A stretch of DNA of 32,000 nucleotides from Ktedonobacterales bacterium (GTDB taxonomy: Bacteria; Chloroflexota; Ktedonobacteria; Ktedonobacterales; JADMIN01), in contig DASVZK010000049.1 in the NCBI GenBank assembly GCA_036391685.1, positions 1 to 32,000 on the forward strand, written 5' to 3'. This document shows, piece after piece, positions 21,866-25,902 of this stretch. The first letter of the stretch is position 1; the number at the start of each line of letters is the position of its first letter. The translations under genes were made by a program, and so were the position numbers. The notes beneath the pieces were generated by a model. The model saw nothing but the letters and a program-made list of their open reading frames with translations. It ran no database searches and was not told where the DNA came from.

Positions 21866-22048
21866 TGGCGTCACTCTTCCCTCTAGAAGCGTCGCCCGCT
21901 CGCCGGCAGCGAACACGCCTCTCTTAACGCTATACGCCCGTGGCGGGGCGCCTGTTGCGCCCCCAGCGGGCGCGAAAACGCTCCGTTAATCAGACCCACT
22001 AACGCTTCTCAGCGCATTGCAAGCTTTCCGGGCTCGCCGCACCTCCTC

Positions 22049-22110
22049 TTGACAGAACGGCTCGAAATGGCTACTCTATCGATTGATGATATATCGATAA
22101 CTGATATAGT
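22049..22110 (+). promoter_or_regulatory. Candidate promoter plus AT-rich palindromic operator upstream of the PadR operon
   Basis: TTGACA (22049-22054), 17-nt spacer, TACTCT (22072-22077). Overlapping inverted repeats TATCGAT (22077-22083)/ATCGATA (22093-22099) and ATATC (22091-22095)/GATAT (22103-22107), in an AT-rich island within GC-rich DNA. Confidence 0.4.
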
Positions 22111-22142
22111 TCGCCTGGTGAGACAGACCTGACGCGAGAGGA

Positions 22143-22544
22143 GTGACGCCAGTGGATGAGTTCTACCCGCAGGCGGGACATGCGCCGCTGACGCCTGCGG
22201 TCTTCCATATCCTGCTGGCGCTGGCGGGCGGTGAGCGTCACGGCTACGCCATCATGCAGGAAGTGCGGCGGCAAAGCGGCGGGCAGATGCGCCTGGGGCC
22301 TGGGACGCTCTACGGCTCGCTGCGCCGCCTGCTGGAGGAAGGACTGATCGAGGAGATGGATTCGCGTCCTGATCCGGCGCTGGATGACGAGCGCCGCCGC
22401 TACTACCGGCTGACACCGGAGGGCCGGCGCGCCGCGGAGACGGAGGCTGCGCGGCTGGACACGCTGGCGCGGGCGGCGCGCGCGCGCGGACTGTTGCCCC
22501 AGCCTCCAGGTGGCGAGCCCGCTGGAGTAGGAGGCGGTGCGTGA
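22143..22544 (+). CDS. PadR-family transcriptional regulator
   Basis: Winged-helix pattern FHILLALAGGERHGYAIMQEV...GTLYGSLRRLLEEGLIEE...RRRYYRLTPEGRR. The start may be the GTG at 22152, which has better spacing from the GAGAGGAG SD. Confidence 0.9.
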   Translation: MTPVDEFYPQAGHAPLTPAVFHILLALAGGERHGYAIMQEVRRQSGGQMRLGPGTLYGSLRRLLEEGLIEEMDSRPDPALDDERRRYYRLTPEGRRAAETEAARLDTLARAARARGLLPQPPGGEPAGVGGGA

Positions 22545-23875
22545 GCAGGGATGACTGGCCGCCAGGACGGCGCCAGAGTAGCCACTGGTCGCTCCCGATC
22601 TATGCGGCGCTGCTCCGGCTCTACCCGCCCACACTGCGGCGCGAGTACGGCGATGACATGCTCCAGGCTTTCCGAGACACGCTGCGCGAGGAGACACGCT
22701 GTCGCGGGCGGCGCGGAGCGCGGCGGGCATGGGCCATCGCGTTGGGTGACCTGGCGGCCAGCATGCCGGGCGAATGGTCACGCGAGCTGCGGCGTGGCTT
22801 GCCTGTCAGCCGCGCGCGGCGCTACGGCCTGTTACGGCGCACACGCCTGCCGGGAGGCGGCTGGCGGATCGAGGGCTGGCTGGGGAGCGCGCCCGCGCGA
22901 AGGCCGTTGCTGCTGATACCAGGGCGCCCCGCGCGGATGGTCGCGAATAGGGCGAGGAGGATGACGATGCAGGACCGGTTCGACAGGTTCACCGAGCAGG
23001 CGCGGCATGTCTTGCAGTTGGCGCAAGAAGAGGCGCAGAGCTTCAACCACAATTACATCGGAACCGAGCATCTGTTGCTCGGGCTGCTCCGTGAGGAGGA
23101 AGGGCTGGGCGCGCGGGCGCTGGTCAGCCTGGGCGTTGAGCTAGAGAAGGCGCGACATGCCGTCGAGCTCATCATCGGGCGTGGCGACCGCGTCATCCTG
23201 GGCGACATTGGCCTGACGCCGCGCGCGAAGAAGGTCGTCGAGCTGGCGGTGGATGAGGCCCGGCGCCTCGGCCAGCGCTATGTCGGGACCGAGCACCTGC
23301 TGCTTGGCCTCGTCCGCGAGGGTGAGGGTATCGCCGCGGGCGTGCTGGAGTCGCTGGGCGTCAGTCTGGAGACGGCTCGCGCCGAGGTGCAGAGGATGAT
23401 GGCGATGTCCGGCTCGGCGCCCACCATGCCTGCCACGTCCGCCGCGAGGGATCCGCTGCGCCTGGCGGTTCTCTACCTGGCGCTCGCCTGTCGCGACATA
23501 AACGCGACCGCCATGTTCTACGTCGAGGCGCTGGGCGCGAGCGTGGCGACGCCGAATGACTCCGCATCGCAGGGGCTGGCAGGTGGCGAGCGGCTGCTGC
23601 GCCTGCCCTTCGGCGGGGCGCGTGGCGGCGGGACACTGCTGGCGCTGCGCGCGGCCACCCCAGATGAGGCGGCTGTTACAGGGCCTGCCACGGGAGCTAT
23701 CGAGCTCCGAGTCATCGCCAGCGATATCGCTGGGTTGCATAGCGCGATCAAGGAGCGCGGGGCCGCCGGCCTGACCAATCTCGCCGAGATTCCCGGCGCG
23801 CCGAATATGCGCGCATTCACGCTGACCGACCCCGATGGGCGCGTCCTGCGCTTCCAGGGTATCTATCGCGCATAA
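22541..23875 (+). CDS. Three-part fusion: PadR-operon-associated N-terminal region, ClpC-type N-domain (two Clp_N repeats), VOC/glyoxalase-like C-terminal domain
   Basis: GTGA overlap with the padR stop. N-terminal YAALLRLYPPTLRREYGDDMLQAF. FDRFTEQARHVLQLAQEEAQSFNHNYIGTEHLLLGLLREEEG plus a second repeat closely resemble the ClpC/ClpC1 NTD. The C-terminus (YLALACRDINATAMFYVEALGA...AFTLTDPDGRVLRF) fits the VOC fold pattern. Confidence 0.8.
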   Translation: MSRDDWPPGRRQSSHWSLPIYAALLRLYPPTLRREYGDDMLQAFRDTLREETRCRGRRGARRAWAIALGDLAASMPGEWSRELRRGLPVSRARRYGLLRRTRLPGGGWRIEGWLGSAPARRPLLLIPGRPARMVANRARRMTMQDRFDRFTEQARHVLQLAQEEAQSFNHNYIGTEHLLLGLLREEEGLGARALVSLGVELEKARHAVELIIGRGDRVILGDIGLTPRAKKVVELAVDEARRLGQRYVGTEHLLLGLVREGEGIAAGVLESLGVSLETARAEVQRMMAMSGSAPTMPATSAARDPLRLAVLYLALACRDINATAMFYVEALGASVATPNDSASQGLAGGERLLRLPFGGARGGGTLLALRAATPDEAAVTGPATGAIELRVIASDIAGLHSAIKERGAAGLTNLAEIPGAPNMRAFTLTDPDGRVLRFQGIYRA

Positions 23876-24023
23876 CGCGCGCCGGCGCGAGCCTCGTGAT
23901 ACCCATCGGCCGTTCCCGTCATATACTGCCCAACACATCCAACACGTCATAAGAATGATAAGCGCTCTGGCCGCGCGGCGAGGCGCGGGCGCTGTCATGC
24001 TGTGGGGTGGGAGGCGAGGAACG

Positions 24024-24956
24024 ATGGACGGGCAGCCTGGCAGGTTCGACAAGTTCACCGAGCGCGCGCGCAAGGTCCTGAGTCTGGCGCAGGAAGAGGC
24101 GCTGCGCTTCAATCACAACTACATCGGAACGGAGCATCTGCTGCTCGGCCTGATCCGCGAACAGGATGGCACAGCGGCGAAGGCGCTGAAGAACCTGGGC
24201 GTCGAACTCAACAAAGTGCGCGCCGCGGTCGAGTTCATCATCGGCCGTGGCGACCAGATCGTGCTGGGCGATGTCGGGCTGACCCCGCGCTCACGCAAGG
24301 TCATCGAGCTGGCGGTCGATGAGGCGCGGCGCCTCGGCCACCGCTCCATTGGGACCGAGCACCTATTGCTTGGCATCGTCCGCGAGGGCGTCGCCTCAGG
24401 CGTGCTGGAGTCGCTGGGCGCCAACCTGGAGATGGTGCGCGCCGAGGTTGCGCGCCTGTTGGATATGTCCGTTTCGCCTTCCGATGAATTGCTGAGCTCA
24501 TTATTTCACTCGCCAGACAGGGGAGCATGGTTGAAGGTGGCGGCACAGCCCGAACCGCAACCCTTCGGCGCCCTCACGTTCATCTGCCGCGATGTGGCCG
24601 CCACCGCCGCGTACTACATGGACTATCTGGGCGCGACCGAGCTGGATGATCCTGAGTCTACGCTACGCTACGAAATCGCCGCCGAACGGCTTTTGCGGCT
24701 GCCGTTCCATGCGCCGCTGCTGGCGCTGCGCTCCGCGCCGCAAGGCGCGGACGAAGCGGAGCGGAACGTCATCGGCGCGATCGGGCTGGACTTCTTCACC
24801 AGCGAGGTCGGAGCCATCTGGGTCACGCTTCAGGCGCGCGACGCGCCCGGCGTCTCGCCGCTCACCGCGGTTCCCGGCGCGACGGACCGGCGCATGTTCA
24901 CGCTGACTGATCCCGATGGGCGCAAGCTGCGCATCCACAGCGCAATCAACACGTAG
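24024..24956 (+). CDS. ClpC-type N-domain::VOC/glyoxalase-like fusion protein (paralogue of 22541..23875)
   Basis: ATG at 24024 with GGGAGGCGAGGAA SD. GRFDKFTERARKVLSLAQEEALRFNHNYIGTEHLLLGLIREQDG... is roughly 70% identical by eye to the upstream paralogue across the Clp_N repeats. C-terminus FICRDVAATAAYYMDYLGA...MFTLTDPDGRKLRI. Confidence 0.8.
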   Translation: MDGQPGRFDKFTERARKVLSLAQEEALRFNHNYIGTEHLLLGLIREQDGTAAKALKNLGVELNKVRAAVEFIIGRGDQIVLGDVGLTPRSRKVIELAVDEARRLGHRSIGTEHLLLGIVREGVASGVLESLGANLEMVRAEVARLLDMSVSPSDELLSSLFHSPDRGAWLKVAAQPEPQPFGALTFICRDVAATAAYYMDYLGATELDDPESTLRYEIAAERLLRLPFHAPLLALRSAPQGADEAERNVIGAIGLDFFTSEVGAIWVTLQARDAPGVSPLTAVPGATDRRMFTLTDPDGRKLRIHSAINT

Positions 24957-25254
24957 CGGCGGCGTTGGCGAGAGTGCGCGAAGGTTGGCGGAAACGCATT
25001 GCCCGAACTGACGACTACCTGTGCGCTTGACACGGCGGAGGAGCGCGCGAAATACCCGCTCCGCTATGCCCACGACATCATCTGTGAACCAGCGTGGCAG
25101 GCGATGGCGGAGCTAGTTGGCAGATCGGAACCGCACGCGTCTTCGTCTTCTGGCGCGACGATCACCACCGCGCGATCTACGCGGTGGTGAGGGACGACGG
25201 CGAGGCGCGCTTGTCATGCGCGAGTTTGGCGCGCCGTGACCGGGCGCAGCGGAC

Positions 25255-25452
25255 TCAGGCGGGCAGCGTAGGGTGGCTGGTGTAGCCGTGCAGGGCGTCT
25301 TGGACGGCTGTCTCCTGCGCTTCCGCTTCGCCGTCATGCTCGTGCGCGGCGAAGCGGCAGGTAGCCAGCACCCCCAGGAAGATGGCGGCCCACACAATCA
25401 TCACCGCCAAAGGGAACAAGATGTCGGTCGCCGAGATGTTCCATGCTGTCAT
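25255..25452 (-). CDS. Small (65-aa) single-pass membrane protein
   Basis: ATG at 25452 lies 7 nt after a perfect GAAGGAGG SD that begins immediately at the osmC-like stop. TM segment ILFPLAVMIVWAAIFLGVLA. No homology recognised. Confidence 0.5.
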   Translation of the reverse strand: MTAWNISATDILFPLAVMIVWAAIFLGVLATCRFAAHEHDGEAEAQETAVQDALHGYTSHPTLPA

Positions 25453-25464
25453 GGACAACCTCCT

Positions 25465-25902
25465 TCAACCTTCTCCGGCCTCGCGAATCTCGTAGGTGTG
25501 CGTGACTCGCGCGGTCTTACTCAGGGTCGCGCTCGCTCCACAGTATTTCGTCTCCGATAGCTCAACCGCCCGCGCGACCGACTCAGGTCGCACATGGTGG
25601 CCGGTCACAATGTGGGTGACGGTGACGTTGACAAACACTTTTGGGTGGTCCTCGGCGCGCTCGCCACTCACGCGCACCTCGTAGCCCGTCACATCTTCGC
25701 GCTTCTTGCGCAGAATCGAGATGACATCCAGCGCGGTGCAACCGGAAAGACCTACCAGCAGCAGCTCCATCGGGCGGAATCCTGAGTCTTCCCCGCCATG
25801 GGCCGCCTCCGCATCCATGACCAGGCTGAACCCCGAGCCCGCTTTGCTCTCGAAACGCATGCCGCCGAGCAAATGCGCGTCGGCCGTCATGATTTCGCCC
25901 AT
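25465..25902 (-). CDS. OsmC/Ohr-family protein
   Basis: FRPMELLLVGLSGCTALDVISIL and SETKYCGASATL (the two conserved Cys contexts of the OsmC family). ATG at 25902 with GGAAAGGA SD is preferred over 25971. Confidence 0.85.
   Translation of the reverse strand: MGEIMTADAHLLGGMRFESKAGSGFSLVMDAEAAHGGEDSGFRPMELLLVGLSGCTALDVISILRKKREDVTGYEVRVSGERAEDHPKVFVNVTVTHIVTGHHVRPESVARAVELSETKYCGASATLSKTARVTHTYEIREAGEG

Follow-up and report, generated by a model that had tools for sequence, protein, structure and literature searches.

We analyzed a window of 32,000 nucleotides (nt) from contig C49 of a 4.67-Mb, 85.5%-complete metagenome-assembled genome of a soil bacterium of the order Ktedonobacterales. The subject of this analysis is an apparent operon of three same-strand open reading frames (ORFs) between positions 22143 and 24956, namely a padR regulator gene and two downstream genes, designated gene 2 and gene 3, each of which encodes a ClpC-type N-terminal domain (N-domain) fused to a C-terminal VOC-fold domain (Table 1). 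The sequence-only reading that preceded this work had placed padR at 22143-22544, gene 2 at 22541-23875 and a further ORF at 23835-24956, and all three are indeed present in the ORF list. Its gene boundaries, however, held only in part, as residues 1-142 of the gene 2 protein had been overlooked and the most likely start of gene 3 is ATG 24024. The latter start follows a Shine-Dalgarno (SD) sequence, GGGAGG, located 9 nt upstream, and the homologs of gene 3 begin at the same place. The longer reading of gene 3 from 23835 (373 aa) was rejected in view of non-triplet (1-nt and 6-nt) indels that distinguish relatives in the upstream part and of homologs that start at MDG or MQ.

Table 1. Features of the padR-gene 2-gene 3 locus (positions in the window)
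Feature	Coordinates	Strand	Description
Sigma-70-type promoter	22049..22077	+	TTGACA (22049-22054), 17-nt spacer, TACTCT (22072-22077)
Putative PadR operator	22077..22110	+	TATCG-N6-GATATATCG, nested palindromes, overlapping the -10 element and the transcription start
padR	22143..22544	+	133 aa, short PadR-type winged-helix repressor; PF03551, E = 4.1e-17
Gene 2, long form	22541..23875	+	444 aa, 48 kDa, pI 10.5; EXT, Arg-rich linker, ClpC-type N-domain and VOC domain
EXT core of gene 2	22592..22795	+	Residues 18-85
Linker of gene 2	22796..22966	+	57 aa, 25% Arg, no Lys, poorly conserved
Predicted internal ribosome-binding site and start	22954..22969	+	GAGGAGG (22954-22960), in-frame ATG 22967; predicted EXT-less isoform of 302 aa, 32 kDa, pI 5.9
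ClpC-type N-domain of gene 2	22967..23398	+	Two Clp_N repeats; PF02861, E = 4.5e-35
VOC-fold domain of gene 2	23474..23872	+	40% identity to the VOC domain of gene 3; profile matches in the PDB to VOC proteins only
Conserved non-coding leader	23915..24023	+	About 110 nt, conserved in three genomes, with 1-, 3- and 6-nt indels
Gene 3	24024..24956	+	310 aa, 34 kDa, pI 5.6; N-domain (24024-24449) and VOC domain (24567-24953), no EXT

The PadR domain of the first gene product scores above the Pfam threshold (62.4 bits against a cutoff of 27), and the nearest NCBIfam model is TIGR03433 (padR_acidobact), with a score under its cutoff; the padR genes of relatives at the same position are 86-87% identical to this one. 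The GTG start of gene 2 overlaps the padR stop codon as GTGA, with the string GGAGTAGGAGG just upstream of the overlap. The claimed linkage of the downstream genes to padR through this overlap is not only correct but conserved: the same 4-nt overlap is found in loci L001 and L042, that is, in three genomes in all, and the order PadR-EXT-ClpN-VOC (EXT being the N-terminal module of gene 2, see below) is preserved in 8 related loci together with the reading frame.

Each of the two downstream proteins contains two Clp_N repeats that score above the gathering threshold (E = 5.4e-33 for gene 3), and the GTEH-LLLG motif is found in every repeat of both proteins. Neither protein yields any Pfam match to an AAA+ module, so that the domain content first proposed for this part stands. 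The NCBIfam models of ClpB, ClpK and ClpA align over the N-terminal ~140 positions only, far under their cutoffs, and the proteins (302-444 aa, compared to 842 aa in the resident ClpC), having no AAA+ module, were not accepted as ClpC/Hsp100 unfoldases. A phmmer search of the PDB retrieved ClpC1/ClpC N-domains with E values of about 1e-44 (1.7e-44 for the ClpC1 N-terminal domain, NTD), with far weaker similarity to ClpC2 structures (1e-13 to 1e-20), and Foldseek comparison of the modelled Clp_N part with ClpC/ClpC1 NTD structures gave target-normalized TM-scores of 0.8-0.9. The genome encodes Clp_N at three loci, namely gene 2, gene 3 and the resident ClpC on contig C88, to the N-domain of which the gene 2 and gene 3 domains are 75% and 81% identical, respectively. 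Purifying selection on the Clp_N domain is apparent from dN/dS values of 0.12-0.35, estimated by the method of Nei and Gojobori (NG86).

The ligand sites to which the earlier account had drawn attention give a divided picture. Residues T7, E32 and E106 (Bacillus subtilis/Staphylococcus aureus numbering) define the two phospho-arginine (pArg) pockets of ClpC (PMC12583610), and their equivalents are retained in both repeats of both of these N-domain copies, hereinafter mimics, as read from the aligned sequences. The drug-contact residues are kept in part: among the cyclomarin-critical positions of ClpC1, namely F2, F80 and E89 (PMC10030653), the phmmer alignment shows equivalents of F2 and E89 but Leu in place of F80, and the ecumicin residues L92/L96 are replaced by Val/Arg and the lassomycin residue R21 by Leu/Gln. 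Because the resident ClpC carries the identical Leu at the F80-equivalent position, the mimics follow their own ClpC rather than the actinobacterial drug pockets. As a separate observation, two residues of the REGEGIA loop are missing from repeat 2 of gene 3 (R--EGVA, 24384-24395), a deletion unique among the sequences seen.

Such near-identity to the resident N-domain could also be expected if the mimics modulated ClpC directly, with N-domain copies dimerized through VOC competing for docking on the M-domain/AAA1 ring, or for a lineage-specific adaptor, and thereby shifting the balance of resting and active states. Within the ClpC assembly, the N-domains with their pArg pockets stabilize the repressed resting state (PMC12583610), and ClpC2 inhibits degradation by ClpC1P1P2 in vitro, according to the summary of Hoi et al. 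given in PMC12678426. Nevertheless, we regard direct modulation as quite unlikely, given that binding of the ring in trans is unsupported and that both the VOC domain and the PadR-partner module are left unexplained. The proposed role as an adaptor that delivers VOC-bound cargo to Clp also found no support, no ClpC-docking element being present.

The N-terminal module of gene 2, denoted EXT, is the part that would connect the gene product to PadR. A stretch homologous to residues 1-142 lies in frame with Clp_N in eight related loci, and gene callers in other assemblies report long forms of 439-448 aa. The EXT core (the first ~70 aligned residues), characterized by the motif LYPPxLRRxYGxxMxQxFRD...GALRAW...LxDLAxSLPREW, evolves under purifying selection comparable to that on Clp_N (NG86 dN/dS of 0.14-0.43 across seven genomes); the linker that follows varies in length among relatives and is nearly unconstrained (dN/dS of 0.3-1.6). 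No Pfam or NCBIfam model, including the 'permease prefix' models, matches EXT, and a profile search of the PDB returned chance-level hits only. With a hidden Markov model of EXT, we detected two further copies in the host genome, each with a same-subfamily PadR gene directly ahead of it and each heading a multi-transmembrane (multi-TM) protein. These pairs are located on the minus strands of contigs C26 (L018:1868-3085) and C5 (L019:1511-2434), the former followed by ABC-transporter genes. Across the phylum, the EXT profile matches 30 of 201 Chloroflexota genomes (27 of 123 genera), and a PadR gene lies directly upstream of the EXT gene in 12 of the 13 phylum loci inspected and for all three copies in the host genome; the PadRs encoded ahead of EXT throughout the phylum share 50-70% identity with the one analyzed here. 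Because the EXT family follows PadR genes in this manner, EXT most likely contacts PadR, which would make gene 2 a part of the regulator rather than cargo alone.

The fusion partners of EXT vary and include multi-TM regions, PP2C phosphatases (Pfam E values of 1e-19 to 2e-20), short Cys-rich zinc-ribbon-like tails and Clp_N. The phosphatase type occurs in other Chloroflexota (L031, L034, L037, L039 and L040, Pfam-confirmed for L031 and L034), where PadR is followed by EXT joined to a PP2C-type Ser/Thr phosphatase, a combination that suggests phosphatase signaling wired to PadR. At another locus (L033, G275:C237), three tandem short EXT genes with CxxC...CxxC zinc-ribbon-like tails lie downstream of one PadR gene. 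Of direct relevance to gene 2, a genome from another genus of the same family (G054, L029:1294-2334) encodes PadR followed by an EXT-linker-Clp_N protein that has no VOC domain, which shows that the EXT-ClpN combination is older or broader than the VOC fusion.

Membership of EXT in the HAAS family, whose domains are likewise found beside PadR genes, was examined and rejected at the sequence level: the HAAS models PF22564 and PF08006 do not match EXT at E<=10 in a whole-genome scan, and hhalign against five bona fide HAAS domains from Ktedonobacteria gave a probability of 0.4%. The adjacency to PadR and the diversity of fusions (multi-TM, PP2C, zinc-ribbon-like and Clp_N) that mark HAAS-PadR pairs are both seen for EXT, which we accordingly treat as a functional analog of HAAS and not as a member of that family.

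Gene 2 appears to have a second start. All nine loci examined retain a Met at the boundary of Clp_N, shifted upstream by one residue in L009 and L012. This Met is preceded by purine-rich, SD-like strings, which in several loci (GAGGAGG, AGGAGA) are made from the rare Arg codons AGG and AGA; these account for 3.4% and 0.9%, respectively, of the Arg codons in the genes of the window. In one lineage, EXT is broken by a stop (L001) or a frameshift (L002), with the short form intact. Because Met and SD are conserved and the short frame survives where EXT is broken, the 302-aa form is probably also produced, from the predicted start at ATG 22967. The in-frame stop of L001 (LL*LYPP, L001:3120-3290) may itself be a sequencing error, a sign of decay or a site of read-through.

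These features of the internal start would also fit a locus in which only the short forms matter, EXT being the decaying remains of what was once a PadR-partner gene, now joined in frame, and PadR a mere transcriptional neighbor, and several gene callers indeed choose forms of 287-320 aa. A relic would hardly show the constraint measured for the EXT core in seven genomes, its in-frame retention in 8 loci, or an SD sequence of its own together with the conserved 4-nt overlap with padR, and we consider decay of EXT to be very unlikely as an explanation.

The assignment of the C-terminal domain to the VOC fold, which the sequence-only reading had made from motifs, is borne out at the level of fold, not by Pfam scores. 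Both candidate families fall below their gathering cutoffs, namely PF00903 (Glyoxalase; 19.5-19.7 bits, cutoff 20.6) and PF18029 (Glyoxalase_6; 21.9 and 14.1 bits, cutoff 23.6), and thus Pfam alone leaves the assignment unconfirmed. A profile built from 13 family sequences, however, matched only VOC proteins in the PDB, with the best E value of 2.4e-4 (3vcx), followed by the zorbamycin-binding protein (8.5e-4) and bleomycin-binding proteins (4.5e-3 to 1e-2). The AlphaFold2 model of the isolated domain (predicted local distance difference test score, pLDDT, of 83.9; predicted TM-score, pTM, of 0.78) consists of two beta-alpha-beta-beta-beta halves, and in a Foldseek search of the PDB that gave 192 matches at E<=0.001 the top 50 were all VOC proteins (E values of 6e-7 to 1e-5, TM-scores of 0.51-0.66). 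By the criterion of the modelled structure, the domain is a VOC fold.

The absence of a metal-binding His from the first strand, also noted at the outset, extends to the second canonical position. In HMMER profile alignments to VOC proteins, the strand-1 His is replaced by Val, Ile or Leu and the last-strand Glu by Arg, His or Val (in the alignment to 3ey7, by Val/Ile and Arg, respectively), and the sole semi-conserved acid, in the IEL motif of strand 5, is Gly in gene 3, a substitution that none of the other sequences seen shares. Judging from these missing ligands, the domain is probably non-catalytic. A VOC enzyme of the glyoxalase, dioxygenase or thiol-transferase-like type tethered to a chaperone-like domain would account for the sub-threshold matches to Glyoxalase and Glyoxalase_6 and for a fold common to FosA/B/X and glyoxalase I. 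Given the loss of His, Glu and, in gene 3, the IEL acid, an enzymatic role appears highly improbable.

The VOC-type domain is narrowly distributed. Of 12 other genomes from the same genus, 9 carry it; in one sister genus, 2 of 3 genomes have a weakly matching ORF that stands alone, and the remaining genomes in a set of 169 from the class gave no match. The domain is also very rare among known proteins, with 6 retrieved by word-indexed searching of 5.8 billion sequences and 13 by an exhaustive phmmer comparison with 1.84 billion representatives. The stand-alone homologs are proteins of ~134-160 aa (L014 and L015 from genus g7, and P0132 of 134 aa) with neither Clp_N nor PadR nearby; the fused domain may derive from such proteins. 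In some genomes of the same genus, the fusion is extended to EXT-ClpN-ClpN'-VOC, with four repeats and a degenerate second N-domain. As regards the neighborhood, the adjacency of an OsmC gene is conserved in a subset of relatives only, and a 185-aa gene that follows the fusion in L001 and L003 was not accepted as a part of the system, being absent from other loci and having a host homolog elsewhere (contig C33).

The properties of the VOC domain could indicate a drug- or toxin-binding resistance system, with the VOC domain as a stoichiometric small-molecule binder, PadR as a xenobiotic-responsive regulator and the N-domain as an accessory involved in solubility, oligomerization or hand-over of damaged proteins. 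PadR regulators commonly control detoxification genes. The closest relatives in the PDB by both profile and fold include ZbmA, BLMA/Sh ble, TnmS1-3, UcmS2 and TioX, the canonical metal ligands are absent, and stand-alone homologs exist in a sister genus (L014, L015) and as P0132. These PDB matches are weak, however (best sequence E of 2e-4; structural E of about 1e-6 at the above TM-scores), and point equally to enzymes such as FosA/B and glyoxalase I. Furthermore, the N-domain, at 75-81% identity to the resident ClpC, is better conserved than the VOC domain (dN/dS of 0.12-0.35 against 0.2-0.85), is duplicated to four repeats in some relatives, and occurs with EXT and PadR but without VOC in L029. 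Its conservation, duplication and occurrence without VOC suggest that the Clp_N part is the core of the system, and we consider drug or toxin binding unlikely to be its primary function.

Upstream of padR, the TTGACA and TACTCT hexamers of the predicted promoter show no change when aligned with two relatives from the same genus (L001, L007), their flanks being divergent; a consensus promoter scan chose instead an overlapping TTGATG-16-TATAGT at 22083-22110. The putative operator contains the inverted repeats TATCGAT/ATCGATA and TATATC/GATATA, and its TATCG and GATATATCG blocks are again invariant in the three genomes between diverging flanks. The motif occurs once in the window, against a chance expectation of 0.09, and is a single site in the whole 4.67-Mb assembly even with up to one mismatch allowed. 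The block thus fits a dedicated autoregulatory operator to which PadR would bind.

Gene 3 has a conserved upstream region of its own. The conservation of the leader exceeds that of the neighboring coding DNA, and the leader contains repeated CGTC(A/G)TA boxes; the SD region is paired in a consensus fold that has weak support, and no Rfam family was found in 21900-25500. Its role could be that of a separate promoter/operator or of a leader RNA. The tandem arrangement of the two genes is also present in a farmland-soil contig (L042) and probably in L043, where the upstream 375-aa gene is interrupted by the contig end. In a maximum-likelihood tree, one clade (support 99/98) unites the gene 3-type proteins, with orthologs P0041, P0099 and P0121, and the upstream gene of L042 is grouped with gene 2 (95/97); therefore the duplication is older than the split of those genomes. 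The gene 3-type ORF of L042 has a stop ten codons before its end (DPD*RK, L042:3140-3165), which may reflect a sequencing error, decay or read-through.

Considering the locus as a whole, we tentatively favor, at somewhat less than even confidence, its interpretation as a circuit in which PadR and its partner sense ligands of the ClpC N-domain, the receptor for substrates, adaptors and other ligands, and produce mimics that buffer these ligands, by analogy with the mycobacterial ClpC2/ClpC3. In this scheme, PadR would bind the unique operator over its own promoter, and translation of gene 2 would be coupled to that of padR, with the VOC domain probably dimerizing and/or binding a small molecule. 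Accumulated N-domain ligands, which might be pArg-type degrons, adaptors or N-domain-targeting peptides, would occupy the mimic of the gene 2 protein, and the occupied mimic would alter the predicted EXT-PadR interaction such that the operon is derepressed. Derepression would provide more of the long form, the EXT-less short form and the EXT-less gene 3 protein, which together would draw ligands away from ClpC. A broader proposition, possible although on balance doubtful, is that EXT represents a new Chloroflexota family of PadR partners that couples diverse sensors to transcription, the sensor in this case being a copy of the ClpC receptor that reports the load of degrons or other ligands, so that the locus would constitute a split one-component system that senses proteostasis and makes its own buffer by way of the internal start and the paralog.

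Several observations weigh against the sensing and buffering circuit. As EXT has no detectable HAAS homology, gene context is what carries the EXT-PadR contact. The McsB arginine kinase was not found in the host genome nor in 45 genomes of the family, and ClpS and MecA were not found in the host genome (85.5% complete, as stated above). The VOC domain, itself under purifying selection, is fast-evolving, and, since the VOC fusion is confined to one genus, with weak stand-alone matches beyond it, any function would be lineage-specific. Finally, given its own conserved leader, gene 3 may be separately regulated.

Comparison with known systems places the individual modules in context. An alternative to two-component signaling has been proposed in the form of HAAS-PadR-like winged helix-turn-helix dyads (Ravi et al. 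2024, PMC11237479; PF22564, PF08006). EXT resembles HAAS as an N-terminal module that is encoded next to a PadR gene standing on its own and whose fusion partners are sensor domains of various kinds, in the membrane or inside the cell. HAAS possesses a three-helix core in which a kinked third helix (GxP) contacts PadR; the YPPxLRRxYGxxMxQxFRD motif of EXT is different. EXT is a candidate for a general PadR-sensor connector across the phylum, and as such would add a second, unrelated module to the HAAS-PadR concept. The VOC domain shares with BLMA/Sh ble, ZbmA and TnmS1-3 a single domain of ~125 aa, the two beta-alpha-beta-beta-beta halves and the lack of a metal site; these proteins, however, show 14-20% identity to it and are stand-alone dimers from producer clusters, without Clp_N.

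Free double Clp_N domains without AAA+ are also known from the plant and cyanobacterial ClpT proteins (PDB 4y0b, 4y0c and 7eko). In this case, the similarity is low (E values of 4e-12 to 3e-4), and ClpT acts on the assembly of the plastid ClpP core and has no PadR or VOC context. Closer relatives, in the same phylum, are the multi-copy proteins of Ktedonobacteria annotated as 'Clp protease N-terminal domain-containing proteins', which are AAA-less and whose N-domains are 60-80% identical to those described here, but which differ in size (335-540 aa), in the presence of two or three complete N-domains and in the absence of EXT and VOC, and are not encoded in the host genome. Proteins of this type (P0002, P0003, P0007, P0013, P0027, P0036, P0061 and P0072) are abundant in Ktedonobacteria, and P0027 has a UVR-like segment between its N-domain copies.

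To our knowledge, caretaker proteins of the ClpC N-domain have so far been an actinobacterial speciality, studied for blunting ClpC1-targeting antibiotics and for sensing pArg. The sequestration precedent that the sequence-only reading invoked is genuine and experimental: ClpC2 is an autorepressor that CymA, rufomycin or pArg releases from DNA, after which it is overproduced and acts as a sponge (PMC10030653, PMC13345244), ClpC2 and ClpC3 shield ClpC1 (PMC12678426), and structures of these Clp-repeat-domain caretakers are available (PDB 8ad9, 8b9o and 9p2p). The mimics, like ClpC2 and ClpC3, are motor-less homologs of the ClpC N-domain, and the autoregulation established for ClpC2 and proposed here would follow the same logic. 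The differences are nonetheless substantial. In ClpC2, a single polypeptide with an N-terminal four-helix dimerization domain both binds DNA and acts as the sensor, whereas here DNA binding would reside in a separate PadR, joined through EXT; ClpC2 is ~40% identical to the ClpC1 NTD and has one pArg site, whereas the mimics are 75-81% identical to the resident ClpC and have both sites; and the VOC domain, the tandem paralog and the predicted internal start have no counterpart in ClpC2. EXT shows no match to PDB entries, including the structure of ClpC2 residues 4-72, and the ClpC2 operator CGTCAAC-n5-GTTGACG is not present at the locus, with three chance-level sites, at 3 mismatches each, elsewhere in the window. 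With both the N-terminal region and the operator being different, membership in the ClpC2 family was rejected.

This system from Chloroflexota, as opposed to Actinobacteria, may be a second solution to buffering or sensing at the ClpC N-domain, different in architecture from the actinobacterial one and probably assembled independently of it. If so, such buffering and sensing would be a recurrent need rather than a mycobacterial curiosity, and the system would point to not-yet-known ligands of the N-domain in a lineage that apparently lacks McsB. The predicted division into a separate DNA binder, connector, sensor and dimerizer would make it modular and experimentally tractable.

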